Assembly (NCBI GenBank): GCA_043821365.1 | Contig: JBDRCX010000006.1 | Coordinates: 1 to 64,000, forward strand | DNA: 64,000 nucleotides | Reading direction: 5' to 3' | Source of the DNA: Candidatus Micrarchaeota archaeon | Lineage (GTDB): Archaea; Micrarchaeota; Micrarchaeia; Anstonellales; Bilamarchaeaceae | Shown here: piece after piece, positions 14,173-58,407 of the stretch | Layout of the letters: the number at the start of each line of letters is the position of its first letter | Numbering within the stretch: the first letter of the stretch is position 1 | The notes under the pieces: generated by a model | Told to the model about the DNA's origin: nothing | Seen by the model: only the letters and a program-made list of their open reading frames with translations | Databases searched by the model: none | Position numbers and translations under genes: made by a program

Positions 14173-14195
14173 TTTACCTTTTAGGAAAAGGTAAA
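14173..14195 (+). repeat. REP-like palindrome copy 1
   Basis: TTTACCTTTT-AGG-AAAAGGTAAA followed by GCCAAAAC. Confidence 0.85.
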
Positions 14196-14264
14196 GCCAA
14201 AACCGGGTGATTAAATTCGCTTTGCGAATTTTTCACGAAGTGAAAAATCAAAAACCAGTTTTTG

Positions 14265-14289
14265 TGCCACTTTTTCCTAAAAAGTGGCA
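14265..14289 (-). repeat. REP-like palindrome copy 2
   Basis: TGCCACTTTTT-CCT-AAAAAGTGGCA preceded by CAGTTTTTG (inverted relative to copy 1). Confidence 0.85.
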
Positions 14290-14349
14290 GTGGTCAAGGA
14301 TAGGAGATTCTGGATCTCTTGACAGCGGTTCGAATCCGCTCGGGGCTAA

Positions 14350-14766
14350 TTATCTTTTTGAAAACTTTGCTGCTACGCCAGACACTTCATCATGAATATC
14401 TTGGATAGCATCTTCAAAAACCATCGAAGCAGTAGAAACAAGTGTTGTTGTGGCACTTATAAGATTAGTGAGGGCAGCCATATTAACGTCATCATGATCT
14501 GCACTAAGAAGAGTTTTGGTTGGAACTTGTTCCCTAATTAGTATGTATAATGGAACACCTTCACCAAGTAAAAACCTAACTTGAGCTAGTGTTGGTTTTC
14601 CTTTTCCATGTGGACGTAGAATATCAGATATTGTTACCTGCATCCTATCTGACGCTACCTTCATGTGTTCAAGCTCTCCCAAAAGCACTGATTGTGAAGC
14701 TTGTGGAAGATCTTTGAAATTGGTTTTTTGTTCACTAATTCTAAGTGTTCTTAAACGAACTCCCAT
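14350..14766 (-). CDS. Hypothetical protein
   Basis: 138-aa ORF filling the gap between tRNA-Gln and the next gene; no motif recognised. Confidence 0.6.
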   Translation of the reverse strand: MGVRLRTLRISEQKTNFKDLPQASQSVLLGELEHMKVASDRMQVTISDILRPHGKGKPTLAQVRFLLGEGVPLYILIREQVPTKTLLSADHDDVNMAALTNLISATTTLVSTASMVFEDAIQDIHDEVSGVAAKFSKR

Positions 14767-14844
14767 AATAATCTATCAATAGTAACACCTTTTAAACATA
14801 ATGAGTAACAAGTTAAAAAACATTGACCCTCTAATTCACTGTAA

Positions 14845-15255
14845 ATGGATATTTCTCCGAAGAACATTAGTGATAGCCTCGCTGCTGCAGAATGGGATGC
14901 ACTAGCCCATGCACTAAAAAAAATGGATACTGGAATCATAGGGGATGATGCAACTTCAAAAAAATTACGCGCACAACTCGGAATTATTAGAATGATAATG
15001 TACGAGGAGATAAGAGAATGGAATGGGCACAATACCATTGACATAACATTTTTTGTTGCATCATTTAAAACAATAAAAAAATTAGAAAAAGATTTTAGTA
15101 AAAAAGGCATAACTAAAAGTGAGTTCTTATTATTCCTAAAGCTGCTATTTTATAAATTTAAAAAACAAAAGATAATAGCCATAAAACCGCTTGAAAAAAT
15201 CGGCGAGTTCAAAAAAATGAAAGGGGTGGTAGAGAATGGCTATGGTCTTATATGA
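14845..15255 (+). CDS. Hypothetical protein
   Basis: 136-aa ORF overlapping the start of the PGI gene. Confidence 0.6.
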   Translation: MDISPKNISDSLAAAEWDALAHALKKMDTGIIGDDATSKKLRAQLGIIRMIMYEEIREWNGHNTIDITFFVASFKTIKKLEKDFSKKGITKSEFLLFLKLLFYKFKKQKIIAIKPLEKIGEFKKMKGVVENGYGLI

Positions 15256-15949
15256 AAATCCGATTCGAATAGAATTAGATGGTATTGATATTATTGTAAA
15301 TGGAGAAACACACCACAAATCCATCAGATACCTAAACCAAATGAAAAAAACCCTTATGAAGTCCATTGATGGCAACATTAATCCTGAAATGTATTTTATG
15401 TTTAGAAATATATATAGCAATCATGATCTCAGGTATGATATAACCATACTTTCTGCACTTGAAATAAATGGTGAGTGCACAAAAACATATGGGCATTACC
15501 ACCCAGAAGATGAGAAGGGAATCTCTTACCCTGAATTATACCAGGTATTGAAAGGAGAGGCAGTATTTATCTTACAGAGAAAAAACAGAGATGGTAGCAT
15601 TGATACAATAATGACCCATGCAAAAGAGGGTGATGTGATACTTATGCCACCTGGATATGGACATGTATCCATAAACCCAGGAGACAAAGCATTGGTACTT
15701 TCCAATCTTGTTTATGATAAATTCGAATCAGTATATACTGATTTTGAAGAAAACCAAGGCGGCGCATATTATTACCTTAAAGGAGGGGAAATAGTTCAGA
15801 ATTCCAATTACATAGTTAAACATAATGAAAGAATGACACCGGAGCAGATTAATGAACGATATAAATTCAATTGTAAAGATCTGCTAAAAGAATTTTATGA
15901 GAACCCTAAAAAGTTTGAGTTTTTAAGAAACCCAGAACTTTTAGAGTAA
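15236..15949 (+). CDS. pgi: Cupin-type (archaeal) glucose-6-phosphate isomerase
   Basis: LRYDITIL, KTYGHYHP, YPELYQVLKGEA, PPGYGHVSINPG, GGAYY. Confidence 0.88.
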   Translation: MAMVLYENPIRIELDGIDIIVNGETHHKSIRYLNQMKKTLMKSIDGNINPEMYFMFRNIYSNHDLRYDITILSALEINGECTKTYGHYHPEDEKGISYPELYQVLKGEAVFILQRKNRDGSIDTIMTHAKEGDVILMPPGYGHVSINPGDKALVLSNLVYDKFESVYTDFEENQGGAYYYLKGGEIVQNSNYIVKHNERMTPEQINERYKFNCKDLLKEFYENPKKFEFLRNPELLE

Positions 15950-16693
15950 TTAAATTTCTATTTTTGAAAACAAATAACTCCCAACAACCAGAACAACCAG
16001 AGTAACTGCCCCCAGAATGCCAAAATCATTGAACATACCTAAATGAGATTGATTGATCAACGCACCCCTCAATCCATCCACACCATAGGAAAGTGGATTA
16101 AACATGGTTATTGTTGCTATGGCACTTGGAAGATTATCAAGTGGGAACAGTGCACCAGAAAGAAAGAATGTTGGCATCACTAAAAAGTTCATTATAAGGT
16201 GGAACCCTTGCATGTCTTCAAGTAGTGATGCAATTGCAGTTCCCAATGCAGTAAAGAAAAGAGCGATTAGAAATGCGAATACCACTGCTGCTGGAAGCAT
16301 AGTAAGATCAGGATGGAAACCAACAAGAAGCGATAGACCAAATACCAGAACTCCTTGAAATAATGAAATTGTTGCGCCGCCTAGAGTTCTTCCTAACATT
16401 ATTTCATACCTGGAAATTGGTGCAACCAATGTTTCTTTAAGAAACCCAAACTGCTTATCCCAAATAACCTCGATGCCTGCAAAAACAGCAGTAAACAGAA
16501 TACTCATTGCAATAATTCCAGGTGCCAAAAAATCAATATAGTTGCCACCACCTGCTTTCTCAAAAATTGGACCAAAGCCAAAACCAAGGGCAACTAGAAA
16601 CAACAAAGGCTGCCCAATAGAACCGATTATACGTGATTTGGAACGAAAGTACCTTTTTATCTGTCTAAGCCATAGGATATAGATTACTTCCAT
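15950..16693 (-). CDS. ABC-2 type exporter permease
   Basis: FLAPGIIAM, DKQFGFLKETLVAP, FLSGALFP, NPLSYGVDGLR. Confidence 0.92.
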   Translation of the reverse strand: MEVIYILWLRQIKRYFRSKSRIIGSIGQPLLFLVALGFGFGPIFEKAGGGNYIDFLAPGIIAMSILFTAVFAGIEVIWDKQFGFLKETLVAPISRYEIMLGRTLGGATISLFQGVLVFGLSLLVGFHPDLTMLPAAVVFAFLIALFFTALGTAIASLLEDMQGFHLIMNFLVMPTFFLSGALFPLDNLPSAIATITMFNPLSYGVDGLRGALINQSHLGMFNDFGILGAVTLVVLVVGSYLFSKIEI

Positions 16694-16694
16694 A

Positions 16695-17495
16695 TCACTT
16701 ACCTCTTCTTCTCCACATTTTCCTATTCATCCTCATATGATCAGATAACGCTGCTTCTTCTGCACGTATCTCACGACCAGTAAGTTGAATGAAAGCTTCC
16801 TCTAAAGTATTGCATTTTGTTTGTTTTTTTAATTCGTTGGATGAACCTTGTGCAATGATTTTCCCATTGTCAATTATTGCAATCTGATCTGCTATTTTTT
16901 CAGCTTCTTCCATATAATGCGTTGTAAAGAAAATAGTAATTTTTTCTTCTTTGTTCATTTTTTGGATATAGGACCAAATGTGGTTTCTTGTTTGTGGATC
17001 AAGACCAATTGTTGGTTCATCTAAAAAAAGGATTTTTGGATGATGAAGTAAACCACGTGCGATTTCAAGACGACGTTTCATACCACCAGAAAAATGCTTA
17101 ACAAGATCATTTTTTCTCTCCCAAAGCTCAACAAATTTCAAAAGATGTTCTATTTTCTTTTTTCTTGTATCAGATGGCATGTGATACACTGCTCCGTGAA
17201 AGTCCATGTTCTCATAGGCAGTAAGTTCATCATCAAGACTTTGATCTTGAAAAACAATACCAAAATTTTTGCGAACTTCATTTGGAGAACTTGCAAGATC
17301 ATGACCATTTAATCTAACCGAACCAATGGTAGGCTGGAGAAGAGTTGTCATCATCTTTATGGTAGTGCTTTTTCCAGCTCCATTTGGACCTAGAAAAGCA
17401 AATACACTACCCTGAGGAACAGTAAATGAAATATCATTAACAGCAATAACTTCTTTGAATTTTTTTGTTAGATTTGTTACTTCGATAGCAAACAT
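16695..17495 (-). CDS. ABC exporter ATP-binding protein (DrrA-like)
   Basis: GPNGAGKST, FSGGMKRR, LDEPTIGLD, TTHYM. Confidence 0.95.
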   Translation of the reverse strand: MFAIEVTNLTKKFKEVIAVNDISFTVPQGSVFAFLGPNGAGKSTTIKMMTTLLQPTIGSVRLNGHDLASSPNEVRKNFGIVFQDQSLDDELTAYENMDFHGAVYHMPSDTRKKKIEHLLKFVELWERKNDLVKHFSGGMKRRLEIARGLLHHPKILFLDEPTIGLDPQTRNHIWSYIQKMNKEEKITIFFTTHYMEEAEKIADQIAIIDNGKIIAQGSSNELKKQTKCNTLEEAFIQLTGREIRAEEAALSDHMRMNRKMWRRRGK

Positions 17496-17508
17496 GAGGG
17501 GCCTCTAA

Positions 17509-20193
17509 TTATATTTTGATGACTGCCACTCTTTTTGCTCTTCCCTGAGCTATTCTGTCACTGCCGCCGCCAGAACCACCAAGTTCTTTTAGTACCTTTT
17601 CAAGAAGTGTTTTGGCACTCGAACCGGAATTTTTACCTGCAGCACAGATAACATTCCCGTGTTTATTAATAATGCAGGCTGCTGCCTTATCACTTTCCGC
17701 AACCTTCAATGCAAGTTTTTTTAGCGAAGATTCATCAAGATCAAGAAGTTTCATAATTGGATGTCCTGAATAATTTTTGATAATTTGAATTGCCTCATCT
17801 TTAACTAATACTTTCTCAAGATTTTCAATCTGCTTCTTTTGTTGTTTCCATTCATCAAAAAATCTTTCAACTGTCCTAACCAACTCCCCTTCAGAGACAC
17901 TTAGAACAATAGATGCATCATGCAATAGTTTTTCTTTTTCATGCATATATGCGATTGCAACAGAACCGCACTTGTAAGTGATTCTTTCAACCCCATCTTG
18001 AACGCTTTCTCTTTTTACAATTTTAAAACATCCGATTTCACCGGTAGTTGAAAGCATTGAATGTGTTCCACCGCATGCCTCGCTATCGATAGTACCAACA
18101 CTTACAACACGAATTTCTTTTCCAGGAACTGCGCCACCCTGGTATAGAGTAAACCCGTATTTTTCTTCTGCCTGATTTCTGGGTAGGACTTCAGTTTTAA
18201 TCGGAAGATTTTGCATAATATATTCATTTACTTTTTGCTCTATTTTCAGCAATTCTTCATTTGATATTCTTCTATAATGAGTAACATCAAGGTGGGCTTT
18301 TTCATCATCTTTATTGGATCCGCCTTGCCATATGTGTGGACCAAGAACATCACGACATGCTGCATTGAGTATGTGTGCAGCAGTATGATGCCTTGCAATA
18401 ATTTTTCTTCTGTTAAGATTGACAACTCCGATGGCTTTCATTCCTTTTTTGAATTTAGATGGATCAGCAACCTCGTGAAGAATAACTCCTGCTTGTCGCG
18501 TAACAAACTTTACTTCCACTTCATTTAATGATCCAGTATCTGCAACCTGACCACCGCTTTCTGGATAGAACGCAGTTTGATCTAGAACCACATATTTACC
18601 GTGAACAACATCCAAAACTTTTGCTTCAAATTTGTCTTGACGCTCATAATAGAGTGGTTCTGTTTTTGATAGATTCACTAGGTCTGATGATAAAACTTTC
18701 ACAGTTGGAGTTTGATCTGCTTTCTCTTCGCCCTCTCCTGCTTTAACCTGTTGATAAAAATTCCCTGGAATTTCAACTTCAACATCATTTTCAGCTGCAA
18801 CTTCCCCAACTGCTTCAGGAGGGATTCCTTGGCTCTTGTACAGGGTGATTAATTCGTTTGCAGGTATCTTGCTACCTTTTGCCTTTTTCACTAAATTAGT
18901 AACAATTGTTTTGGCCTTTTCCTTTGTTGCCTGGTATCGTTTTTGTTCTTCTGCAATCACATCTATTGTAGTATTGACACCGCTTTTCAGATGTGGGAAT
19001 ATATAATGTAAAAATTCTGCATGGCCTTCGATGATTTTAGCATAATCTAAATCATAACCATAACGGGTTTGGAAACCAAACACTCTTCTTAATAGCATTC
19101 TGAGGTTATAACCACCGCCAGAATTGCTTGGAAGCATCCCATCAGTAACTGTAAACAATAGAGTACACAGATGATCAGATGATGCGTAAAGTGCCTGTAA
19201 TGGTTCAAGTGTTTCGAATAATTCTTTTTTACTTACACCAAGCATACCTGCAATTCTTTCCTTTTCTTTCTCAAGATCAGGAACTTCATCTTCATTCAAG
19301 CTTCCTGAAATCTTTGCGAATCTAACAAAAAGTTCTTTGTCAATTTTCACTCCTGCTTTCTTCTTCATATTCTCAATAACAGAACCGAACACAACCTCAT
19401 AACTTGTTGGTTCTCCAGATGTTATCCATGCAAGCCTGCTCAAGCCTGCACCCATATCAATTACTTTTGTAGGAAGTTCTTTTGGACCTGAAGGAGTTAC
19501 TTCATACTGCATAAAAACACAGTTCCCCAATTCCAAACCACGAACAAAATATTCGATACATGGACCGAAATTGCCCCCACCTGCCCAAACATCTTCTTGG
19601 AAAACTATTTCTTCTTCTGGAATTCCAAGAGCTTTCAGATAGTTTAGATCGTGAGTGAGTGCTTCTTCTTTCCAATAAAAATTACCAGTTTTTTTAGTAT
19701 TGAATGCATGCTGTCCGATCATAACAAAATTAGTATAATGTCTTCCACTAACCCCAACATTACTAATATCAGAGAATCTAACACAGGGTTGTGGAACAAT
19801 TAGTGGGTTGTGTGGTGGTTCTAATTCCCCATTAACTACATATGGTTGGAAATCATTGATTGACGCAACTGTAAAATATAGATCATCCCTCCATCTTGCA
19901 ACAGTTGGATATGGTTTAACATAACCATGACCAGATTGTTTGAAATATTTTTCAATTACTTTCCAAGTATCAACATATCCCAATTTTTTCTTCACTGGTG
20001 TAGAACCAATAAACTGATAACCAATACACGACGGATCGCCACATTGTTCTCTTATGTCTTTAGCCCAAAACATCCTAGAACATTTGGCACATTTTTGTCT
20101 TTTGAAACCACGATCAGTGAGGATATTCAACTTGTAGTGTTTTTCCCAATCTTTAGCAAAATCTTTACGTAATTGATTTTTGTCAACGTCCAT
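17509..20193 (-). CDS. alaS: Alanyl-tRNA synthetase, archaeal type
   Basis: ARWRDDLYFTVASI, VGVSGRH, IDMGAGL, editing-domain HHTAAH and CGGTH, C-terminal GGSGGG. Confidence 0.97.
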   Translation of the reverse strand: MDVDKNQLRKDFAKDWEKHYKLNILTDRGFKRQKCAKCSRMFWAKDIREQCGDPSCIGYQFIGSTPVKKKLGYVDTWKVIEKYFKQSGHGYVKPYPTVARWRDDLYFTVASINDFQPYVVNGELEPPHNPLIVPQPCVRFSDISNVGVSGRHYTNFVMIGQHAFNTKKTGNFYWKEEALTHDLNYLKALGIPEEEIVFQEDVWAGGGNFGPCIEYFVRGLELGNCVFMQYEVTPSGPKELPTKVIDMGAGLSRLAWITSGEPTSYEVVFGSVIENMKKKAGVKIDKELFVRFAKISGSLNEDEVPDLEKEKERIAGMLGVSKKELFETLEPLQALYASSDHLCTLLFTVTDGMLPSNSGGGYNLRMLLRRVFGFQTRYGYDLDYAKIIEGHAEFLHYIFPHLKSGVNTTIDVIAEEQKRYQATKEKAKTIVTNLVKKAKGSKIPANELITLYKSQGIPPEAVGEVAAENDVEVEIPGNFYQQVKAGEGEEKADQTPTVKVLSSDLVNLSKTEPLYYERQDKFEAKVLDVVHGKYVVLDQTAFYPESGGQVADTGSLNEVEVKFVTRQAGVILHEVADPSKFKKGMKAIGVVNLNRRKIIARHHTAAHILNAACRDVLGPHIWQGGSNKDDEKAHLDVTHYRRISNEELLKIEQKVNEYIMQNLPIKTEVLPRNQAEEKYGFTLYQGGAVPGKEIRVVSVGTIDSEACGGTHSMLSTTGEIGCFKIVKRESVQDGVERITYKCGSVAIAYMHEKEKLLHDASIVLSVSEGELVRTVERFFDEWKQQKKQIENLEKVLVKDEAIQIIKNYSGHPIMKLLDLDESSLKKLALKVAESDKAAACIINKHGNVICAAGKNSGSSAKTLLEKVLKELGGSGGGSDRIAQGRAKRVAVIKI

Positions 20194-20367
20194 TCAAAAC
20201 CCTCTACACTTCTCTACTTGGGGTTCGTTATGGACGGCGTTCCGTCCATGATGTGTTCGTGAACGTTGCAACGTTCGCGACATTGTATCCCCATCATATA
20301 CCAATTGATATTGCACTCAAAACCCTCAGTAGATAAAATAAATACAGAAACATTTAACAGAACAGAT

Positions 20368-20622
20368 TTAACTTCTTTTTGATTTTCCCAAAATAGCCAT
20401 CCCTTCTTCAATGGTATGAGTTAGGGCAATACTCTTTGCTTTCTTTAGATGCTTATTGCAAAACCACACAGCATTCTCAGGATGGCAACAGATATTTTTT
20501 CTTTCGAACAATGAAAGCAACCTTTCCAATATAGTTTTTTTACGAACTAAAAAATAGACAAGATCACCATCTTTTTCGGGGTAGAATTCCTTATTGCAGA
20601 TCTTACAAACTGGGGGCAACAT
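20368..20622 (-). CDS. Small putative zinc-binding protein
   Basis: CKIC near the N-terminus; HP...WFCNKH near the C-terminus. Confidence 0.65.
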   Translation of the reverse strand: MLPPVCKICNKEFYPEKDGDLVYFLVRKKTILERLLSLFERKNICCHPENAVWFCNKHLKKAKSIALTHTIEEGMAILGKSKRS

Positions 20623-20651
20623 AAAGTGAATATCAAAGAAAAATTAATAGA

Positions 20652-21254
20652 TTATTCTAATCTCAAAGACCTAAGAATTGCCTCTTTTATATTGAATGCG
20701 ATTTGCGAATCAAGTGCAAGAACACGAATGTTCACGTGGATTGATTTTTCAGGTATGTATATACTCATAGCATAACCAGCGTATGTAGTATTGAAATCAG
20801 TCAACTCGAAATAGGATTCTGCAACATAGTATTTCTGTGCGACTGTAAATTGGGTTGGAGAATCGATCCTATCTGCCCTAAGAAGAGTATTCATAGAATC
20901 AAGTTCAATATCATCCAGAAGAAAATCAGTAGCAAATTTTGTAGGGTTATCTTTGAAAATCTCATCCTGATTTTCACCATATTCTTCAGTTGTATTTATA
21001 TAAACAAGATTAATTGATTCTGCTGGCTGATATGAATATGGAGAAGGAAGATAGTGAACACCGGAAAGAGTTCCGGGTTGGGAAGTTGTTACAATGTTCC
21101 CAGGATGATCAAAACTAAAAATCTCATTTGAATAATGACTCCAAACAGACGGCTGATTGAGTAATGGAGCTGGAGCTGGATCAAGCGGAGTAAACACTAT
21201 CTCTTCTGTGCATCCGCATAGAAGCAATGGAAGTAGAATAATTAGCCATTTCAT
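20652..21254 (-). CDS. Putative lipoprotein
   Basis: MKWLIILLPLLLCGC: signal peptide with lipobox-like Cys. Confidence 0.7.
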   Translation of the reverse strand: MKWLIILLPLLLCGCTEEIVFTPLDPAPAPLLNQPSVWSHYSNEIFSFDHPGNIVTTSQPGTLSGVHYLPSPYSYQPAESINLVYINTTEEYGENQDEIFKDNPTKFATDFLLDDIELDSMNTLLRADRIDSPTQFTVAQKYYVAESYFELTDFNTTYAGYAMSIYIPEKSIHVNIRVLALDSQIAFNIKEAILRSLRLE

Positions 21255-21643
21255 AGTCCAACCACCTTATGTACAGAATCCAAAAAACCCCATGCAATCA
21301 TAATTGCTTGTTTGGATTGGTGTCTTTCAATGTTAAGGATTCTTTGTGCAATATTTAATAAAATACCTTGTTTCTGAGTAAAATCAATTGATTCTATTTT
21401 TTTCCACTCATTTAATGGAAATAAATGCGGGTAGCTACCATGTAAATAAGAGAGAACAGTAGAAAAATCAGAATATATGAAACCATCACTGAATAAAATG
21501 GCAGATGCTGACATTCTCATTGAATTTCTAGCTTCATTGAATGCAAGCACATAATCACAATTGTCAAACTTCTCATTCGCAACGTCAAGCATATCCATTG
21601 CAACCTCGATGGCAAGTGCTGCTTTTGATATGTCTGGTTTCAT
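21251..21643 (-). CDS. HEPN-like helical protein (stand-alone)
   Basis: N-terminal helices (AMDMLDVANEKF..CDYVLAFNEARNSMRMSASAIL..G) resemble the HEPN pattern. Confidence 0.5.
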   Translation of the reverse strand: MKPDISKAALAIEVAMDMLDVANEKFDNCDYVLAFNEARNSMRMSASAILFSDGFIYSDFSTVLSYLHGSYPHLFPLNEWKKIESIDFTQKQGILLNIAQRILNIERHQSKQAIMIAWGFLDSVHKVVGL

Positions 21644-21707
21644 TGGATGAGGTATCTTCGGAAAATGATTTAAAACCGCATATACAAGATCCTATTGTGA
21701 ATAAATT

Positions 21708-23192
21708 ATGCAACTTAATGATATAGTATTTGAATTAGCACTTAAGAGATCATTTTTCTTTCCAAGTAATGAACCCTATGGTTCCATTGCAGGGTTCTAT
21801 GAATACGGACCAGTTGGAGTGCTTATAAAACACAAGATAGAGAATCTCTGGCGCGAAATGTTTCTAAAAAAAGAAGGATTTCATGAGGTTGAGACCAGTA
21901 TTGTGACTCCAGAACCAATATTGGTGGCATCGGGTCATGTCTCTAGCTTTGCTGATCCAGTTGTGGAATGTGAAAAGTGCAAAACAAAAATAAGGGCAGA
22001 CAGCCTTGTAGAGGAAAAGCACTACAACCTCCACGGAGAAAAATGGGATGGAAAACTTGAAAGTTTAGACACAACCATATCAGAAAAAGGGATAAAATGC
22101 CCAAAATGCAGTGGTTCATTTGGCAGATGTTTTATGTTCAATTTAATGTTTCAGACTGGAATAGGTGGTGAAAGATTAACTGCATATTCAAGACCAGAAA
22201 CAGCACAGGGTATTTTCACAGCATTTCCAAGAATCTTCAAAAATCATGGAACAAAATTACCTCTGGCAGTTGGTCAGGTCGGTAAAAGTTTTAGGAATGA
22301 GATTTCGCCAAGAAAAGGTCTTGTAAGAATGCGAGAATTCACCCAAATGGAATTAGAATATTTCTTCAACCCATCACAACCAGATTATAATTGTTTTGAT
22401 AAAGTCGAAAATTTCAAATTGATTATGGGCATTGCTGGGGAATCCAAAGAGATGACTGCTGCTCAGATAGTGGAACAGAAAATTGCAGCCAACCAGATAA
22501 TGGCATATTTCTTAGTGCGTCAGTGGGAATTTTACAGAAGAGTGGGGATCACTGAATCAAAAATGTGCCTTCGCGTTCTTGATAGTCATGAAATCCCGCA
22601 TTATTCAAAAGGCAATATAGATATGGAAGTTGAAACATCATTTGGTAAAATTGAAACAATAGGAAATGCTTACAGAACTGATTTTGATCTTACATCGCAC
22701 ACAAAACATAGTGGCCAGGATTTCAGTGTTTTTGTTGAAACTGAAAAGAAAAAAATAATGCCTCATGTATTTGAACTGTCAATGGGGGTTGACAGACTAT
22801 TCTATTGCATATTGGAACATTGTTATAGAGAGAAAACAAAAGAAAAGGACTGGGAATGGTTTGATTTCCCACCTGCAATTGCCCCATATGATGTCGCAGT
22901 ATTCCCATTGATGACAAAGGATGGACTCGGTAAAAAAGCAGAAGAAGTTGCAAGTTTATTGAGAAAAAGTGGATTGGATGTTGCCTACCGTGACAGCGGA
23001 AGTATTGGAAGGCGCTACGCAAGAAATGATGAAATAGGAGTACCATATGCTCTAACAATTGATTATGATACGCTAAAAGATGACACAGTAACAATAAGAT
23101 ATAGAAATGATGGTAAACAAGAAAGGATTAAAATTTCCGAATGTGAAATTTTGATAAAAGAAAACATCAAAAATGGGAAGGTGAACTTATGA
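21708..23192 (+). CDS. glyS: Glycyl-tRNA synthetase (homodimeric type)
   Basis: YEYGPVG, SGHV, FNLMFQT, RPETAQGIF, FRNEISPR, REFTQME, MGVDR, GRRYARNDEIG. Confidence 0.97.
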   Translation: MQLNDIVFELALKRSFFFPSNEPYGSIAGFYEYGPVGVLIKHKIENLWREMFLKKEGFHEVETSIVTPEPILVASGHVSSFADPVVECEKCKTKIRADSLVEEKHYNLHGEKWDGKLESLDTTISEKGIKCPKCSGSFGRCFMFNLMFQTGIGGERLTAYSRPETAQGIFTAFPRIFKNHGTKLPLAVGQVGKSFRNEISPRKGLVRMREFTQMELEYFFNPSQPDYNCFDKVENFKLIMGIAGESKEMTAAQIVEQKIAANQIMAYFLVRQWEFYRRVGITESKMCLRVLDSHEIPHYSKGNIDMEVETSFGKIETIGNAYRTDFDLTSHTKHSGQDFSVFVETEKKKIMPHVFELSMGVDRLFYCILEHCYREKTKEKDWEWFDFPPAIAPYDVAVFPLMTKDGLGKKAEEVASLLRKSGLDVAYRDSGSIGRRYARNDEIGVPYALTIDYDTLKDDTVTIRYRNDGKQERIKISECEILIKENIKNGKVNL

Positions 23193-24214
23193 AGAAGATT
23201 ATTTTTATTTTCGTTGTTGCTATTTTATTATTTGGATGTTTTGATGGAGAAACACCAGCAAACCAAACGATTGTTAACAATAATCAAACCCAGCAGAACA
23301 ACACTCCAATAACAATAGTAATTGGTGGTCAAACCAACCAGACAATAGGAGCAAACATAACAATAGAACCACCGGATAATAACACGATTTATACCGAAGA
23401 ACTAGAATATACCTATCAGCCTGATCAATCATTTGGAGTGTATTTCATAGATGTTGGATCAGATACTCATGGAAATGCAGTTTTTGTGAAGAAAGGCGAT
23501 TTAGATATTCTTATTGATGCTGGTCCAGAGGCCATGGGGAATAAAGTTGTTGATTTTCTTAGATCAAAGGGCGTTGATGATCTGGAACTCATAATATCAA
23601 CCAGTGCTGATCCAAGACAATATGGTGGGATACCAACGATTCTGAATAATTTCGTAGTAGAACAGTATTGGTGGGGAGATGATTCTTTTGGAGATCCAAA
23701 TTATGATGCTATATTAGATAGTATGATAGATAAAACAAAAAGTGTAAAAATAATCAAGGCAGGTATGAGTGTTGATTTAAATGGCATGAATTTTACATTC
23801 ATCAATCCTCAGACAGATAAATTCAATAACATAAATAATGATGCAGTTGTTACAAGGATAATTGATAGGAATTTCTCGTTATTGCTTACATCAGGAATAC
23901 AAAAAGGAGCACAGGGAAAATTAATAACAAAGTACGGCCAACTGATAAAGACCAAGATATTACAGGCACCTTATTATGGCGTTGGAGAAGGAACTAGTGA
24001 TATCGGAGTATTTTTAGTAAATGCAAACCCAACAAACATAATAATAACAGGAAGCAGTGACGACTCTGCAACAAATGGAGGGTCAAGAGAACCATTCAAG
24101 AAACTGTTAACACAGTACAACATGAAATGGAATGACACATACACAGATGGAACAATAAGAATTTTCAGCGATGGATATGAATATTCGATAAGTGCACTTG
24201 GTTCTGGACAATAG
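23189..24214 (+). CDS. Lipoprotein with ComEC/Rec2-like metallo-beta-lactamase fold and degenerate metal site
   Basis: Lipobox LLFGC; FIDVG, ILIDAG, GVDDLELII. The HxHxDH position reads STSADPRQ and the PHHG position reads PYYG. Confidence 0.75.
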   Translation: MKKIIFIFVVAILLFGCFDGETPANQTIVNNNQTQQNNTPITIVIGGQTNQTIGANITIEPPDNNTIYTEELEYTYQPDQSFGVYFIDVGSDTHGNAVFVKKGDLDILIDAGPEAMGNKVVDFLRSKGVDDLELIISTSADPRQYGGIPTILNNFVVEQYWWGDDSFGDPNYDAILDSMIDKTKSVKIIKAGMSVDLNGMNFTFINPQTDKFNNINNDAVVTRIIDRNFSLLLTSGIQKGAQGKLITKYGQLIKTKILQAPYYGVGEGTSDIGVFLVNANPTNIIITGSSDDSATNGGSREPFKKLLTQYNMKWNDTYTDGTIRIFSDGYEYSISALGSGQ

Positions 24215-24257
24215 ACCACCATTTAAATTATTTTCTTATGAACATCATTTCTCTGGT

Positions 24258-24384
24258 GGGCCTGTAGCTCAGCTTGGTAGAGCGACGGACTCTTATCTTT
24301 TGGAAATGGACAGTCAGTTTTGGCTCCACCTTTTCCTAAAAGGTGGAAATCCGTGTGTCGAGAGTTCAAATCTCTCCAGGCCCG
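24258..24384 (+). tRNA. tRNA-Lys(CTT) with 53-nt canonical intron (24296-24348)
   Basis: GGGCCTG/CAGGCCC acceptor, ACGGA-CT-CTT-A|A-TCCGT anticodon arm, GAGAG-TTCAAAT-CTCTC T-arm. Confidence 0.92.
24325..24347 (-). repeat. REP-like palindrome copy 3
   Basis: TCCACCTTTT-CCT-AAAAGGTGGA preceded by CAGTTTTGGC; inside the tRNA-Lys intron. Confidence 0.85.
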
Positions 24385-24516
24385 AATTTTCATCTTAAAT
24401 TAGGTCTTTCCTGATATATCATCGGGAAAATCGGGACGGAAGTGAACGAAGTTCGCAACAGGCCTGTTTTAGTTTGTTTGAGGGGCCAGCGCCCAGACAA
24501 AAGTGATGGTTTTTCA

Positions 24517-25053
24517 ATGAAGATAATAGCTATTTCTGGATCGCCAAGAAGCGGTAACTGTGAACGATTAGTAAAAGAGGCCTTAGAAGCAGCACAACTG
24601 GAAGGTGCAGAAGTAGAATTAGTTTTATTAAGAAAATTAAGAATTACTAGATGTTGTGGTGATGACCAATGTTACCATACTGAGAGATGCAAGATTAACG
24701 ATGAGATTAGTGAATTGATGAAACGCATAAGTGAATGTGATGGCATGATTCTCGGTTCCCCGTCATACTTCAATAATGTAACTGGACTTATGAAAGAATT
24801 TATGGATAGAACAAATCCATATGCTAAGTACCAAAGATGGAGTAATAAAAAAGCAGCAATTATTGTAGTTGGTGGAGCAACACACCGGTCTCTTGTGAAA
24901 TGTGCAAAAATAATCAAGGATTTTTTCTGGATCCATAGAATAAACGTTGTTACTACTGGATATTTTCTTGCTGAAAAACCAACTGATGCCAGTCAAAATC
25001 AGAAGTACTTAAAGAAAGCAAAGATAATCGGAAAAAAATTGGCAAAATCTTAA
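24517..25053 (+). CDS. Flavodoxin-like iron-sulfur flavoprotein / NADPH-dependent FMN reductase
   Basis: AISGSPR.GN, CCGDDQC...C...D, GSPSYF..VTG.MK.FMDR. Confidence 0.88.
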   Translation: MKIIAISGSPRSGNCERLVKEALEAAQLEGAEVELVLLRKLRITRCCGDDQCYHTERCKINDEISELMKRISECDGMILGSPSYFNNVTGLMKEFMDRTNPYAKYQRWSNKKAAIIVVGGATHRSLVKCAKIIKDFFWIHRINVVTTGYFLAEKPTDASQNQKYLKKAKIIGKKLAKS

Positions 25054-25097
25054 TAAACACATAATACATAATCAAATTGAGGCAAGGAGGTTTAACT

Positions 25098-25799
25098 ATG
25101 GTTAATATTATTTCTGTACGCGGATTAGTATTTCTGGCTCTTTTCACCATATTGGCATTGGTCGGCATGCAAATGAACTTTGCACAATTGGTTGGAGCTA
25201 ATGCTCAATACCTGACTTTCTTCCAATTCCTGGGCCCAATGGCAGGAGGATTCTTGGGAGTGTTTGGTGTTATTGCGGTTCTTGGTGCACAGGTACTTAA
25301 TTCTACATTGTTTACACACAATTTCGAGATGTTGACAATACTTAGATTTGCAACAATGATGTTTGGTGCCTATTACTTTAGTAGAAACTTCAAAAGAGGA
25401 TTTGAGGATAAAATAAGCCTCATTATTCCGGTTCTAGCAATGCTAGTATTCTGGATGGACCCAATAGGGCAACAAGCATGGTATTATGCTTTATTCTGGA
25501 CAATACCATTGATAGTCAAATTTATACCAGATAATCTTTTCTTGAGAAGCTTAGGCGCAACTTTTACTTCTCATGCAGCAGGAAGTATGATTTGGGTGTT
25601 GGCAGCAGTTCCAATGACATCAGAAGCTTGGACAGCATTGCTTCCAATTACAGCAACTGAAAGACTTTTGTTTGCAGCTGGAATCTCAGTGAGTTATGTG
25701 TTCTTTACAAATGTACTTAATGCAGTTGATAAGGTTACCAATGCAAGCAAATACATAAACATCGAGAAGAAGTATGTTATTTCCCTTGCAGGGAAATAA
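25098..25799 (+). CDS. Polytopic membrane protein, possibly ECF S-component-like
   Basis: Six to seven hydrophobic segments and a GGAGG RBS; function is inferred only from size and topology. Confidence 0.5.
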   Translation: MVNIISVRGLVFLALFTILALVGMQMNFAQLVGANAQYLTFFQFLGPMAGGFLGVFGVIAVLGAQVLNSTLFTHNFEMLTILRFATMMFGAYYFSRNFKRGFEDKISLIIPVLAMLVFWMDPIGQQAWYYALFWTIPLIVKFIPDNLFLRSLGATFTSHAAGSMIWVLAAVPMTSEAWTALLPITATERLLFAAGISVSYVFFTNVLNAVDKVTNASKYINIEKKYVISLAGK

Positions 25800-25805
25800 T
25801 TTTAT

Positions 25806-26423
25806 TTATTTTTTTATATATTGGACTAATCTTCCGTTAATCATATAATGACCTTTAGAAAAAGAATCAACAATTTTTGCATAAGCCGTATGTTCTATCT
25901 TAAGGATTTTGGCAGCAGTTTCATCAGCATCCTTACAATCACTAATGTCAATAGATTCTTGATAAATAATAGGCCCACCATCAAGAGTCTCATCGACAAA
26001 GTGAATGGTAATGCCTGAAACCTTCGCACCATAATCAAACGCCTGTTTCTGCGCATTTTCACCAGGAAATGCTGGTAAAAGAGCAGGATGAATATTTATG
26101 ATTTTATTTTTGTATTTTTCAAGAAGTGATTTGCCCTTAATAAGAAGCATATATCCAGCCAGAACAACAAGATCAACATTATTTTGATCTAGAATCTGTT
26201 TTATGTGTTCGTCCATTTCATCTCTTGATGCAAATTTCTTCTTATCAATTAGTTCAACTGGAATTGAATTTGAATTGGCAATTTGAATTGCCCCTGCTTC
26301 CGGATTATTAGTGATTAGAACAGTGATATTAGCATTGCATCTGCCAGCCTTTATTTCATTTACAATTGCTTGAAAATTACTTCCCCTGCCAGAAGCAAGA
26401 ACTGCAACTTTTACTTTATCCAT
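25806..26423 (-). CDS. purN: Phosphoribosylglycinamide formyltransferase
   Basis: LASGRGSNFQAI, VLAGYM, NIHPALLPAF, G.TIHFVDE.LDGGPII. Confidence 0.96.
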   Translation of the reverse strand: MDKVKVAVLASGRGSNFQAIVNEIKAGRCNANITVLITNNPEAGAIQIANSNSIPVELIDKKKFASRDEMDEHIKQILDQNNVDLVVLAGYMLLIKGKSLLEKYKNKIINIHPALLPAFPGENAQKQAFDYGAKVSGITIHFVDETLDGGPIIYQESIDISDCKDADETAAKILKIEHTAYAKIVDSFSKGHYMINGRLVQYIKK

Positions 26424-26456
26424 AGATAGATGTAGGATGAGAAGAATATAAATATA

Positions 26457-26696
26457 TTATTTCCAGGCAGGCATACCAGCCATTCTTTCATCAACATAAG
26501 CAGCAGCAGTTGCCCTATCTGCTTTTTTATTTTTCATATAGAAAAGGATCATGCCTTCACGCACTTCATGTTTTGGTTTCAACGTCCCATTTGGTAAAGT
26601 ACAATGTTTGCAATGGTGATTTGATTCATCCCCACCACCAAAATCAAACTTACTGATCATAGGCATACCACAGCTTTCACAAGTTTTAAACGTCAT
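26457..26696 (-). CDS. Zinc-ribbon domain protein
   Basis: CESCGMPM...HCKHC. Confidence 0.75.
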   Translation of the reverse strand: MTFKTCESCGMPMISKFDFGGGDESNHHCKHCTLPNGTLKPKHEVREGMILFYMKNKKADRATAAAYVDERMAGMPAWK

Positions 26697-26748
26697 AATA
26701 ACACCCGAAGTAAACAAATATCAAAGATAAGATGTAAATACTTTACGA

Positions 26749-27885: not shown

Positions 27886-27960
27886 TTTACTATGTGTTTA
27901 ATAGTGGTAAGTAGAGTATTTAAATGTTTGTAAAGTGTAACGTTGATTGGTATGAATATT

Positions 27961-28090
27961 TGCCGAGGGGGGAATTCGAATCCCCGGCCTCTCGATGTCT
28001 GAGTACACTAGATATCATAGGGTTTCCCCTCATAACTCATCTGATTTGCACATATGAGTCGAGCACTCTAGCCAACTGAGCTACCTCGGC
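27961..28090 (-). tRNA. tRNA-Met(CAT), probably elongator, with 56-nt canonical intron (27997-28052)
   Basis: GCCGAGG/CCTCGGC acceptor, CTCGA-CT-CAT-A|A-TCGAG anticodon arm, TTCGAAT T-loop. Ile2 identity is not excluded. Confidence 0.9.
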
Positions 28091-28222
28091 GAACAATGTG
28101 AACTGAGGTTTTGCAAACGAAGTGTCGTTTGGTTATACCTCAGCATGGACAATAACATATCCATAAAAAGTAGAGTTATTTAATTTGATTAGCTTTTTAT
28201 TATATACGAATTTTGTGATTTG

Positions 28223-31570: not shown

Positions 31571-31609
31571 TCATTTAAGCATTCTGTCAGAATTATCTGC
31601 GGTGATCAC

Positions 31610-32053
31610 TTGGATTTTGGCAAATCAATGAAAGCTGCCACAATACCAGCAGTACTTTTAATAGCTCTTGGAATTGTTGGTGTTGGAATAGGATTCATAC
31701 CTTTTTTAGGATGCATTACAGGGATACCAATGCTCCTTGCAGGTTGGGCTATTCTAGGATGGGCAGGATTTAAAGCAGTAAAAGAAGAGAATTTAGACAT
31801 TGTTGGTGGTGCACTTGCAGGTCTTATTGCAGGTTTAGCTAGCTCATTAGTAGTGGGTGTGATAAACTTTGTACTTGGCATGCTTGGAATTGCAGCAGTA
31901 GCAGCAATGGGCAGTAGTGACATAACCGGTGCAGCATTAGGTGGTGGCCTGGCAATAGTTGGTCTTGTTATTGGAATTGTAGTAGGTGCAGTAATAGGAC
32001 TTGTGTTTGGTGCTATCGGAGCTTTAGTTGCACAACAAATGGCAAAAAAATAA
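31610..32053 (+). CDS. Gly-rich membrane protein
   Basis: TTG start behind GGTGA; four hydrophobic Gly-rich helices. Confidence 0.7.
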   Translation: MDFGKSMKAATIPAVLLIALGIVGVGIGFIPFLGCITGIPMLLAGWAILGWAGFKAVKEENLDIVGGALAGLIAGLASSLVVGVINFVLGMLGIAAVAAMGSSDITGAALGGGLAIVGLVIGIVVGAVIGLVFGAIGALVAQQMAKK

Positions 32054-32679: not shown

Positions 32680-32770
32680 TATATACCTCCGGTTCTCGAC
32701 TAATGTCGAATTGTATGAAATACACTCACATACTATCTTTATAAATATTTTTCGTGACGTGAACCTTCTG

Positions 32771-54813: not shown

Positions 54814-54965
54814 ATCACCTCATAGCGAAATATCTAAATGTGTGTTATGGTATATTTTAGTGGGGACCAATATTTAAATGTTTGTATTTGTTCAATTGTG
54901 GTGGTACTAAGACATTCTTCATGCCCCCAAACCATACAATACATTTCTAACAAAAACTAATAATA

Positions 54966-57158
54966 TCAAACTCGACGGAACATTAACGTCTTGTCATCAT
55001 CATTTTTACTTTCTCTTTCTTTACATGAACACATGGTTGGGAATTTTGTTATTCTTTCCCCATCTGGACCATCATTATTATCTGCTCTTCTTTCTTCTGC
55101 CATTGATATTAGAGCATCTCTTGCCATAGTCAAATCCCCAGAATAAAGATCTATTACATCAACAATTTCATGATTGCAAATCGGTACTCCGATTCCATCA
55201 CTATGCACAGCAATGATGTCACCTTTTTGTAGAACAAATGGTTGGTGATGATAAAGTCTACCATTTATATGAATATGAGCAGCACCATGACCTAATGCTG
55301 AACCGATTATATGATCTGGATAATTAAGTTCAACTTGTTTTTTTAGAACTGCTTCGTAAAATTCTTTTGTTTGTGTTTCATCAAGATCTCTTACTCGAAG
55401 TCCTCTTTCTTCAAATTCATTAGAGACCAATCCAAAAGCACCAACATAGTTAAAAGAGTGGCCAGCACTTTCAGCTACTATTTTACCACCACGAATTATT
55501 TTCCAATCACTATCCCCACAGTGAATTCCATAAAACTCATTTTCTTTTTGATAGGATATTGTTACTGTGGTCCCCATATTGTTTATTTGTCTTCTATCTA
55601 GTGTTTGTTTTGATGCTATCTGGTCCATAACCACTGCCAAGTCCATTGCAACAATAGTAGCACGCACATCTTCTGGAGTTGATATCCAGCCCGCAGCAGA
55701 TGCAATCTCAAAAACTTCTTTTGCAATTTCACTTGCTCTGCTGCCACCGCCATGTCCACCCATACCATCAAAAACTGCATCAAGATAGACTAGTTTACCA
55801 TCAGGAAGAGTTACTCTGGCTGATGAGAAATTATCCTCACACTCTTTTGGAGTACCATCACGACATCTTTTTGCTTTCATACTTGTGTTTTTGTAAGTTA
55901 TTGAACCATAAACCTGGTGATTGAAGCCAAGAAACGAAGAGAAAACACTAAATTCTGCCTGTCTTAGTGCAGCTTGCCTAAGTGCACTCAGTTGCATTGT
56001 TTCTCCAAAAGCAGCAATATCAAGCAGTAGTTGTTGATGATAATTTTGTTGATAAACTGGATGTAAAAAAGCACGTTCTAAATTTCCCACTACTTCCGAA
56101 GGGATTCTTCTTGCATTAGAATAACTTGGAACCAACCTTGTTGATAAACCATGTTGTTCTCTTTCATATTTACCCTCAAGTTGTGGTGTTTGCGTCAGCA
56201 AATCAACCAAACCAGTTTCTTCTCTTGTGAACCTAGGGGCATCTTCAAATCGAATTTTGTGAGCTAATGAAGCAAGAGTCCTAAGGTCTAAAACATTTCT
56301 ACTATGAAATTGGAATCGCTCTGCAATTGGTGTGTTGAACCAAAGATCGTGTGTTGAATTGTATTTGAACACAGTATTCTTATGTGCCATTGTTGCAGCA
56401 TTTGTATCAACCAATAGACCTTTGCCTTTTTTTGCTTGTATAAGTATTTGTACTCCTTCAACCCTTTCCATCCATCGTATAACTGCAATTGTTCTTTCAT
56501 TTAATTTTCCTTTTCCAGATATTGCATCTGCAACAGATTGAAAATCAGAAGCAGAAGGATATGCCTTGCTCCAAAAATCAGAAAGTGCAGCATTATTTCC
56601 ATCTAACCATGCATGAAATAATTCAAGTTTTAGTGCAGTTTCTGGTAAACAAACATCAGTAAGATTCTTGAATCTCGGTGCATTTGGTCCAAGTGATTCC
56701 ATTGGCATTAAATAAAATGAATCAAGTTGAAAAGAATCTTCCATTGCCAGTGCTTCCAATCTTTTAGTTGGAGTTCCTGGAATAAGATCGCATTTGTCAT
56801 AAATAGAACGAACAGCCAGACGAACTTCCTGTACTCTGTGCTGACCATCTTGTTTTTCCCACATTCCTGCAACTAAAAGCTGCATTCTCAAATCCCTAAT
56901 TCCAGGATGCATTGCAAGGAACTCATTGAATCTTGATTGATCTAATTCACCAACTGATATTCTCAAAGCTAATGAAATCGCATCTCTTTCTCTCACATTT
57001 AATTCATTGAAAAGCATTTCTTCTCTTGAAGTTATTTTTGATCTTAGTTCAAGTGTTGGTAGACCCATCCTATCAGCTAAACCTTTGGTAATATCTTTAG
57101 GAATAGCTCTGGTATGTAGCTGACGTGAAAGTAAAGTTTGTGGGTTAATCTCGGCCAT
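54966..57158 (-). CDS. Large protein with C-terminal PP2C/PPM Ser/Thr phosphatase domain
   Basis: CED, AVFDGMGGHGGG.RAS, MGTT, HCGDS, HSDG, DDKT; about 430 aa of unknown N-terminal region. Confidence 0.85.
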   Translation of the reverse strand: MAEINPQTLLSRQLHTRAIPKDITKGLADRMGLPTLELRSKITSREEMLFNELNVRERDAISLALRISVGELDQSRFNEFLAMHPGIRDLRMQLLVAGMWEKQDGQHRVQEVRLAVRSIYDKCDLIPGTPTKRLEALAMEDSFQLDSFYLMPMESLGPNAPRFKNLTDVCLPETALKLELFHAWLDGNNAALSDFWSKAYPSASDFQSVADAISGKGKLNERTIAVIRWMERVEGVQILIQAKKGKGLLVDTNAATMAHKNTVFKYNSTHDLWFNTPIAERFQFHSRNVLDLRTLASLAHKIRFEDAPRFTREETGLVDLLTQTPQLEGKYEREQHGLSTRLVPSYSNARRIPSEVVGNLERAFLHPVYQQNYHQQLLLDIAAFGETMQLSALRQAALRQAEFSVFSSFLGFNHQVYGSITYKNTSMKAKRCRDGTPKECEDNFSSARVTLPDGKLVYLDAVFDGMGGHGGGSRASEIAKEVFEIASAAGWISTPEDVRATIVAMDLAVVMDQIASKQTLDRRQINNMGTTVTISYQKENEFYGIHCGDSDWKIIRGGKIVAESAGHSFNYVGAFGLVSNEFEERGLRVRDLDETQTKEFYEAVLKKQVELNYPDHIIGSALGHGAAHIHINGRLYHHQPFVLQKGDIIAVHSDGIGVPICNHEIVDVIDLYSGDLTMARDALISMAEERRADNNDGPDGERITKFPTMCSCKERESKNDDDKTLMFRRV

Positions 57159-57231
57159 TTTATCCCTTGTTTCTATGTATGTATTTTTGTGGGTATGTAT
57201 TTTTAAATAAACCTTTTATGAAAATGGAAAA

Positions 57232-57936
57232 TTATGTTAATGAGATTTGAAATAGAGTTCCAACAAAATAGCCAGTTAAAGCAGCTGCACCACCAATAAG
57301 CATCAACTCAATCCCACCATGAAGCCATTTGCCCGAGGTTAAATGACTTTTATATGCACCAAAAACAAATAGAAAAACAATGCTTATTATCAAACTTAGT
57401 ATAATTGAAAAATTCACTGAAAAGAAAAAGAATGGGGCAATAGGTATCAAAGATCCGATAATTGCACTGACTCCGACAATCAAACTTTGTTTCAAAGGAG
57501 ACATACTTTCCCTTGGATCTTCAAGTTTTAGCTCATCCCGCATCATTGTTTTAAGCCAGACTTTTCTATTTGAAACAATTTTGTCAACAACTTGATTCAA
57601 TAGTTTCCCTGAGAAACCTTTTTCTTTATATATCTCAGCTATTTCTTCACGTTCTTTATCTGGAAGATTTTCCATTTCCCAGATTTCTCTTGCTATTTCT
57701 GCTTCATAATGTTCAACTTCTGCACGTGCAGATGTATATGCAACTGCCGCCATGCTTACACTCTCTGCAAATGTTGCAGCAAGACCAGCAAGAAGAACAA
57801 GCTGAGTTGATTGAGTTGCAACCGCCACACCCAAAAGAATACCAAGAACATTGACAAGACCATCCTGGCCACCTAGAATAAGATTTCTGAAAAGTTCTCC
57901 TCGACCAGTTCGATGTTGCTCAATATGTTCTAACAT
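57232..57936 (-). CDS. VIT1/CCC1-family metal transporter
   Basis: ILGGQDGLV, ESVSMA..AYTS, E.EEI..IY..KG, M.RDEL, G.LIP..PF. Confidence 0.92.
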   Translation of the reverse strand: MLEHIEQHRTGRGELFRNLILGGQDGLVNVLGILLGVAVATQSTQLVLLAGLAATFAESVSMAAVAYTSARAEVEHYEAEIAREIWEMENLPDKEREEIAEIYKEKGFSGKLLNQVVDKIVSNRKVWLKTMMRDELKLEDPRESMSPLKQSLIVGVSAIIGSLIPIAPFFFFSVNFSIILSLIISIVFLFVFGAYKSHLTSGKWLHGGIELMLIGGAAALTGYFVGTLFQISLT

Positions 57937-58147
57937 ACAAAATCAATATAGTATATTACGATTAAAAAGATATCAAATTTTTCAGAATGAAAAATTCATC
58001 AACAAAAAATGGACTTGTTGTGAACTTCCAACTGAACGACGAATCGTTCAGTGGACCATAGAACGAATACTTCGTTCTGTAGGTCGTTCACTTCTCGTCC
58101 AAATTTCTTGAGTATAGCTAATAGAAGAACAAAAATAAAATGAAATT

Positions 58148-58407
58148 TGGACTTGAGGGGACTCGCACCCCTGGCCTCTCCGATTTTCTATTTACCATGA
58201 AATTGATAATTGCATGGCCGCATTGAACAGAGTCCAATAGCGTAGATATGCGAACGGAGCGCTCTGCTTCCCGCTTTTAGGAAAAGCGGGACCAAACCCC
58301 GCAGTTCATAAAAGATAATGCTCCAACCTTTTTCCTAAAAAGGTTGGACCAAAAACTAATTTTTGATCCAAACTTTTTTTCAAAAAGTTTGGCTGAGCTA
58401 CAAGCCC
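58148..58407 (-). tRNA. tRNA-Ala(CGC) with about 124-nt D-loop insertion (58269-58392) and 65-nt canonical intron (58184-58248)
   Basis: GGGCTTG/CAAGTCC acceptor with G3:U70, CTCCG-TT-CGC-A|T-CGGAG anticodon arm, T-loop TGCGAGT. Confidence 0.85.
58269..58392. repeat. REP-like palindrome copies 5-7
   Basis: TCCCGCTTTT-AGG-AAAAGCGGGA (58269-58291), TCCAACCTTTTT-CCT-AAAAAGGTTGGA (58322-58348), CCAAACTTTTT-TTC-AAAAAGTTTGG (58368-58392). Confidence 0.85.

Follow-up and report, generated by a model that had tools for sequence, protein, structure and literature searches.

Short hairpins found in the tRNA introns of Candidatus Micrarchaeota archaeon (assembly GCA_043821365.1) appear to belong to a genus-specific, non-autonomous module of ~32 nucleotides (nt) that is copied into new sites and makes introns, spliced by the tRNA endonuclease, in tRNA and rRNA genes. 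We hold this reading with moderate confidence. The starting point was a window of 64,000 nt (C6:1-64000, on contig JBDRCX010000006.1) from genome G000, which comprises 1.2 Mb at 36% GC and is 87% complete. The closest match of its alanyl-tRNA synthetase (83%) is from an uncultured archaeon, and the other good matches are from metagenome-assembled genomes of Micrarchaeota/Micrarchaeia. Genomes used for comparison carry G-numbers (G004, G011 and so on); 18 genomes of the same genus and 12 other genera of the order were scanned for the family. No published description of the hairpin family was found in the literature searched. ARAGORN without intron mode called 0 tRNAs in the window and 8 across the genome, and an Rfam search of the window returned two intron-bearing tRNAs, as fits the phylum; most tRNA genes in these genomes would be missed by standard finders because the module makes introns in them.

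Seven perfect hairpins lie in the window, within four intron-bearing tRNA genes (Table 1). A direct check and the genome scan confirmed their positions, stems, loops and tails as given in an earlier note on this DNA. The hosts named there were likewise recovered by in-silico splicing, ARAGORN and reading of the anticodon loop. ARAGORN called the in-silico spliced products tRNA-Gln(ctg) and tRNA-Lys(ctt), the third gene reads tRNA-Ala(TGC), and the fourth was identified as Ala(CGC) by the anticodon loop. Both orientations are present, and the hairpins sit 0-2 nt from the exon junction wherever the junction can be fixed, in keeping with the original description. The loops are also as described, CCT and TTC being AGG and GAA read from the opposite strand.

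The repeat unit is ~32 nt long and directional, comprising a variable stem of 4-7 bp, C-T4-6, a purine-rich 3-nt loop, A4-6-G, the stem complement and a tail of the form (N)CCAAAA(A)C. When copies were oriented by flank and aligned, a common oriented consensus that includes the tail was present in 43 of 45. Perfect copies were sought genome-wide by matching TTTT-N3-AAAA and extending the stem outward without mismatch, with the chance expectation taken from ten Markov simulations. The distribution of stem lengths is bimodal. Stems of 4 to 8 bp (256, 76, 22, 7 and 1) decay as by chance, and stems of 9 to 12 bp (15, 20, 8 and 1) form a separate population of 44 perfect copies, compared with 0-1 in each simulation. 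The hairpin family is real and not a product of chance. A covariance model built on the unit (R1), which replaced a relaxed hairpin pattern scan that was too noisy, detected ~60 copies in the genome. Structure rather than sequence had been proposed to be kept; this holds only in part, as the outer stems recur as subfamilies (CCGCC, GCGC, CCACC, CAAAC, CCAAC and TGAAAC).

Orthologous genes with and without the element point to insertion. In tRNA-Gln(CTG), 12 of 13 same-genus orthologues are uninterrupted (GTCTAG-[C/T]GGTC), and G000 carries a 118-nt composite precisely at GTCTAG|TGGTC; the element in G000 is therefore an insertion. It consists of hairpin A, a CCAAAAC tail, two internal hairpins, an inverted tail, hairpin B and a G. 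Different family-type inserts occupy the identical site in Gln(CTG) of G011 and Gln(TTG) of G006. A site in the 23S rRNA gene is also polymorphic for insertion, being empty in G004, G007, G031 and G018 and filled by a 53-nt insert in G000 and an orthologous 46-nt insert in G013. G031 is the closest relative, yet lacks the insert common to G000 and G013. The G000 insert ends in a 10/12 direct repeat of its upstream flank (GGGGCCCATGAA versus GGGTCCATGAT), the sole duplication-like signature among the insertion sites. The intron of tRNA-Lys(CTT) is old, with whole-gene alignments at 84-92% in many same-genus genomes, and the hairpin of unit 3 is kept in at least 12. The intron is absent in G046 and G049 and persists as a decayed remnant in G007, and introns homologous to it occur in Lys(TTT) and Arg(CCT). 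Contigs of four DNA runs were compared with positions 14000-33900; X1 showed no differences across the Gln locus, and no polymorphic insertion was detected. Among public runs, none of RNA was listed as containing this genome. The same comparison contained one 79-nt joint at 24277-24357, with 21-nt sides and 88% likeness, which probably derives from another organism.

Genome-wide, 39 of the 60 R1 copies (65%) lie inside tRNA genes, distributed over 22 of 42 tRNA loci. Three others abut tRNA ends, one directly follows RNase P RNA, one lies in the 23S rRNA gene, three share an unidentified non-coding locus, 12 are in ordinary intergenic DNA, and one is a weak match in coding sequence. The family had been described as confined to tRNA introns, which is true within the window but not across the genome, where 21 of ~60 copies are outside tRNA genes. 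An equal or higher density in intergenic DNA had been named as the mark of a general repeat or terminator; the opposite was found, with 5.6 copies per kb in tRNA loci versus 0.17 per kb in other non-coding DNA (~33-fold). Together with the Gln insertion, this density supports in outline the proposal of the earlier note that a non-autonomous mobile palindrome creates tRNA introns. The family was detected in 17 of 18 same-genus genomes at 1-41 copies (G011, 41; G015, 38; G008, 0), and at one copy or fewer in each of the 12 other genera.

Several intergenic copies have real genes as neighbours: ribosomal protein L11, radA, a HerA-like ATPase and, for a copy in the operon spacer, E2 and E3 of a 2-oxoacid dehydrogenase. 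Of seven intergenic units in co-directional gene contexts, six (C3:71510, C6:80868, 186914, 209935, 549088 and 720439; exception C3:49213) put the U-rich inverted tail and hairpin on the mRNA-sense strand, which may reflect a bias in orientation or a side effect of terminator-like kind. A U-rich side in the transcript, as in archaeal oligo-T terminators, and copies after genes and in operon spacers would be expected of a general hairpin, resembling repetitive extragenic palindromes (REPs) or terminators, that accumulates where it is harmless and colonises existing introns without creating them. We consider this quite improbable given the density contrast and the fact that the Gln and 23S inserts consist wholly of the element, in otherwise uninterrupted genes. 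Units are, moreover, positioned at exon junctions rather than randomly inside introns, and T5 runs within tRNA genes would be harmful if they were efficient terminators.

Some copies inside and outside tRNA genes of G000 match exactly. One tRNA-intron copy is identical to an intergenic copy over 32 nt, and another such pair is identical over 31 nt. In both pairs the match extends from the hairpin foot, with one T more, to where the tail ends, and so defines the limits of the copied unit. We infer that copying takes place at the DNA level, and tRNA genes would be preferential targets rather than places of mere survival. Alternatively, the hairpins could be helpers of tRNA introns only, evolved within these to supply splice-site helices and spread among tRNA genes by recombination or gene conversion, much like intron transposition in Thermoproteales, with the intergenic copies as occasional dead-end by-products. 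Such a role is consistent with the 65% of copies in tRNA genes, with the one D-loop site at which an identical hairpin recurs in several tRNAs and the identical block includes exon sequence, and with the homologous intron of Lys(CTT), Lys(TTT) and Arg(CCT), whose hairpin is conserved by compensatory change. It accounts poorly for 12 ordinary intergenic copies, two of them matching intron copies with such sharp boundaries, for the copies within 23S rRNA and next to RNase P RNA, and for the copy in the E2/E3 operon spacer, which is beyond the reach of gene conversion. We therefore regard it as unlikely.

The pairing of the hairpin has been retained as its sequence changed. Among Lys orthologues, the outer stem TCCACC/GGTGGA is replaced by TCAACC/GGTTGA in G015 and by CCGCC/GGCGG in G036 and G011; these double substitutions retain pairing, and on the tRNA sense strand several of the intermediates form G.U pairs. 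Compensatory changes thus maintain the Lys intron hairpin across species. G.U exceeds A.C by ~7 to 2 in a count made by eye on these related sequences, which is suggestive of selection on the RNA hairpin. Imperfect copies within G000 are too few to be informative (2 versus 1).

Archaeal introns are released, and ligation by an RtcB-type ligase follows. In-silico removal of the inserts restores tRNA-Gln and tRNA-Lys, and orthologues without an intron place the junctions at the same points. A bulge-helix-bulge (BHB) motif in which the family hairpin forms the outer helix on the intron side can be drawn by inspection for single-unit inserts. The BHB of the 23S insert combines exon CATG with intron-terminal CATG, has bulges AA|A and AT|A, and has the hairpin starting from intron nt 2. 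In the tRNA at C6:400785, intron 1 consists of T, the hairpin, GAGT and AG, and GAGT pairs with exon GCTC. In tRNA-Ile, at position 37/38, TCAG is the pairing partner of exon CTGA, with the A-rich tail as linker.

A candidate enzyme is encoded by an open reading frame (ORF) of 393 amino acids (aa) at C6:408560-409741, which is three-unit-like and has two tRNA_int_endo (catalytic-fold) matches. The epsilon2 splicing endonuclease of ARMAN-2 is likewise a three-unit enzyme; it has broad specificity and cleaves strict and relaxed BHB motifs, and 56% of the tRNA genes in ARMAN-2 show disruption (PMC3239211). By analogy with ARMAN-2, the 393-aa ORF may encode an endonuclease able to cut relaxed motifs. 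Hairpin-bearing introns, composite ones likewise, would then be excised by the splicing endonuclease. A second splicing-endonuclease homologue, an alpha-like protein of 163 aa (C6:480404-480892), occurs genus-wide, including in G008 with its 0 copies, and in a few other genera. It was rejected as a dedicated nuclease because its presence does not track family copies; its match in G004 contains an in-frame TGA.

The arrangement of units is regular. At every tRNA locus displayed, the sense strand reads exon, hairpin-tail, inverted tail-hairpin, exon; within tRNA introns, the hairpin adjoins the exon and the tail is directed into the intron. Ten long introns, including that of Gln, are mutually homologous versions of one composite of ~110-130 nt, ordered as unit, spacer, hairpin X (A4-N3...N3'-T4), hairpin Y (ATTTTCGC...GCGAAAAT), spacer and inverted unit. 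They have a mean column identity of 61%, with compensatory pairs in the stems, and occupy D-loop, anticodon-loop and T-loop positions in different tRNAs. Composites terminate in two inverted units, that is, in terminal inverted repeats, which single units lack. Their predicted fold is a multi-branch junction; in that predicted for pre-tRNA-Gln, pairing between the tail and the inverted tail brings both family hairpins to the two junctions.

Units also occur at the ends of mature RNAs. An inverted unit ends 2 nt 5' of tRNA-Ala(GGC), and a forward unit with G.U pairs lies directly 3' of RNase P RNA. Outside the window, at tRNA-His (C6:696722-696904, with an encoded G-1), the last nucleotide of an inverted unit is position -2, next to G-1, and a forward unit begins 3 nt past the discriminator; the upstream flank resembles the right half of a composite intron. 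The units 5' of tRNA-His and tRNA-Ala(GGC) and the one 3' of RNase P RNA may have taken on a role in cutting mature RNA ends, and at tRNA-His the splicing endonuclease may mature the ends in place of RNase P and RNase Z. After the tRNA-His unit, C6:696893-696960 holds three tandem half-units (3' arm plus GCCAAAAAC tail), one of which matches the 3' arm of a Gln hairpin (AAAGGTAAAGCCAAAAAC); this suggests partial duplications or decay products.

Candidates for a mobiliser were examined in the same genome. A single intact IS200-like Y1 (HUH) transposase gene (C3:96623-97072, 106.6 bits) is flanked by its own unrelated subterminal hairpins (ATTGAACGA..., ATAGAACGG..., CTGCGGGC...), with no family unit nearby, and searches of G011 and G015, carriers of 41 and 38 copies, turned up no Y1 gene. 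The earlier note had suggested a REP family moved by a REP-associated tyrosine transposase (RAYT) or IS200-type HUH (Y1) enzyme acting on single-stranded DNA hairpins. The encoded Y1 enzyme and the form of the repeats, hairpins with an asymmetric tail, are compatible with that; the unrelated Y1 ends, its absence from the findings in both high-copy genomes and the inverted ends of the composites, unlike IS200/IS605 derivatives, largely refute it and leave it next to no probability. TnpB is represented by a C-terminal remnant only (Cas12f-like zinc-ribbon, C6:553800-554150), with tRNA-Gln(TTG) on one side and an intron-bearing tRNA-Val(CAC) on the other; it has no link to the family and was discarded as mobiliser. 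No autonomous element with family ends was found, there being no unit beside Y1 or the TnpB remnant except in the adjacent tRNA intron; other transposase families were not searched.

Spread at the RNA level would require excised, possibly circular introns to be ligated or reverse-spliced into RNAs, reverse-transcribed and recombined into the genome. That the units are defined at RNA splice junctions would agree with this. The search for a reverse transcriptase in the 87%-complete genome found none, which leaves the suggested route through RNA ligation and reverse transcription without support. Intergenic copies lie in both orientations relative to neighbouring genes, and the copied block is one unit rather than a whole intron; we consider RNA-level spread very improbable.

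We hypothesize that the module of hairpin and CCAAAA(A)C tail would be copied at the DNA level, either singly or as the ~110-130-nt composite, in which two inverted units enclose two further hairpins. Copies would persist in non-coding DNA and, by preference, in tRNA and rRNA genes. Where a hairpin lies directly against an exon, it would form the intron-side helix of a relaxed BHB, and the broad-specificity epsilon2-type endonuclease and ligase of the host would excise the insert from the RNA. Selection would thereafter maintain the hairpin pairing. More generally, and only tentatively, a free-standing mobile module of ~32 nt that brings its own splice-site helix may create spliceable introns beside suitable exon sequence in tRNA and rRNA genes of this DPANN genus.

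Several observations weigh against this history. Composite introns yield no convincing canonical BHB: the H helix of the Gln composite has 3/4 pairs and competes with an 11-bp hairpin, and Thr(CGT) has none. No consistent target-site duplication was found, with none at Gln or Lys and only the 10/12 repeat at 23S, and no mobilising enzyme was identified among Y1, TnpB and reverse transcriptase. The ~33-fold density contrast is partly circular, as intron length is itself made of units. A 40-nt identity at the same site in related tRNAs covers exon sequence and could reflect gene conversion rather than transposition. The count of G.U versus A.C is small and not phylogenetically independent.

Table 1. 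Family units, their host genes and related features (window positions unless a contig is given)
Feature	Position	Strand	Hairpin	Remarks
tRNA-Gln(CTG) gene	14158-14348	+		exon 1 14158-14172, D-loop intron 14173-14290, exon 2 14291-14348; ARAGORN on spliced product
Junction GTCTAG|TGGTC of tRNA-Gln(CTG)				fixed by intronless orthologues
118-nt composite element	14173-14290	+		entire Gln intron; orthologue comparison
Unit 1, TTTACC-TTTT-AGG-AAAA-GGTAAA + tail GCCAAAACC	14173-14204	+	14173-14195	adjoins Gln 5' splice site; 35.9 bits
Unit 2, TGCCAC...GTGGCA + tail, inverted	14256-14289	-	14265-14289	stops 1 nt short of Gln 3' splice site; 43.2 bits
tRNA-Lys(CTT) gene	24258-24384	+		53-nt intron 24296-24348 at position 37/38; Rfam tRNA 56.2 bits
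Unit 3, TCCACC...GGTGGA, inverted	24316-24347	-	24325-24347	stops 0-1 nt short of Lys 3' splice site
tRNA-Ala(TGC) gene	35714-35836	+		with D-loop intron
Unit 4, CCGCC-TTTT-AGA-AAAA-GGCGG + CCCAAAAC	35730-35759	+	35730-35750	directly 3' of exon ...GCTCAGT; 43.0 bits; 40-nt stretch identical to copy in tRNA at C6:684599
tRNA-Ala(CGC) gene	58148-58410	-		D-loop intron with three units; second, unit-free intron in anticodon loop
Unit 5, TCCCGC...GCGGGA + CCAAACCC	58269-58299	+	58269-58291	on tRNA strand, its end is the 3' splice site of the Ala(CGC) D-loop intron
Unit 6, TCCAACC...GGTTGGA + CCAAAAAC	58322-58356	+	58322-58348	inside Ala(CGC) D-loop intron
Unit 7, CCAAAC...GTTTGG + ATCAAAAAT	58359-58392	-	58368-58392	on tRNA strand, directly 3' of Ala(CGC) exon ...GTAGCTCAG
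23S rRNA insert of G000	C4:16855-16907			53 nt, unit-bearing

Further loci were recorded beside these. Two tRNA-Met genes of the window, 27961-28090 (-) and 37127-37241 (-), have introns of 40-58 nt without a family unit; not all introns of the genome therefore derive from the module. Outside the window, C6:474690-474969 carries three units in the same orientation inside a non-coding stretch of ~600 nt, possibly an unrecognised, heavily interrupted RNA gene. No Rfam family matched this locus at E<=0.1, and signal recognition particle (SRP) RNA was ruled out as its identity, being located at C6:464965-465223. Among the unexplained unit-bearing loci searched with Rfam, 23S and RNase P were the only identifications. 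Directly 3' of an intergenic unit, C1:44400-44540 contains C-box/D-box-like motifs (TGATGA ... CTGA, twice) and is possibly a C/D box sRNA.

Transposition of tRNA introns in Thermoproteales was reportedly described by Fujishima et al. in 2010 (Mol Biol Evol). Its mechanism was called unknown in a 2014 review, from which the comparison here is drawn (PMC4090602); a process at the level of DNA is presumed. Both systems have near-identical intron families in different tRNA genes and positions of one genome, together with a broad-specificity endonuclease, and related introns in tRNAs of different identity and position are indeed found in G000. Unlike in Thermoproteales, the repeated entity here is a discrete hairpin-plus-tail module rather than a whole intron, and it also occurs between genes, within 23S rRNA and at the flanks of tRNAs and RNase P; its host is a DPANN genus whose enzyme is of the epsilon2 type. 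Thermoproteales intron transposition is the nearest precedent. Candidatus Micrarchaeum acidiphilum ARMAN-2 belongs to the same phylum, has more than half of its tRNA genes interrupted at canonical and non-canonical sites (PMC3239211, PMC3488258) and possesses the three-unit endonuclease to which the 393-aa ORF of G000 is homologous; unlike here, the texts of these two papers mention no hairpins or repeats in introns.

Other short mobile palindromes share parts of this pattern. Bacterial REP and REPIN elements (PMC3116915) are short, many-copy extragenic palindromes, often in inverted pairs and with compensatory conservation of the hairpin, and REPIN doublets resemble the composite element. The present family differs in being archaeal, in lacking a cognate RAYT and in having most copies inside RNA genes as introns. 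Yeast mitochondrial GC clusters (PMC4478555) are likewise short mobile palindromes without an identified mobiliser, in non-coding regions and sometimes in genes, but belong to another domain of life, differ in sequence and are not removed by RNA splicing. Miniature inverted-repeat transposable elements have terminal inverted repeats, as do the composites only; unlike them, the family leaves no fixed-length target-site duplication at the Gln, Lys and 23S sites.

How archaea gain tRNA introns is an open question, and a 2026 census of Asgard tRNA introns (preprint) states that their route of arrival "remains open" (10.64898/2026.10.13.758758). The hairpin family offers a rare concrete lead. The genus is a tractable natural system, having a short recognisable module, orthologous sites both empty and filled, identical copies inside and outside tRNA genes, and copy numbers that range from 0 to >40 among sister genomes. 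If our reading is true, no earlier case would have shown the donor element behind the gain of archaeal tRNA introns both outside and inside tRNA genes.

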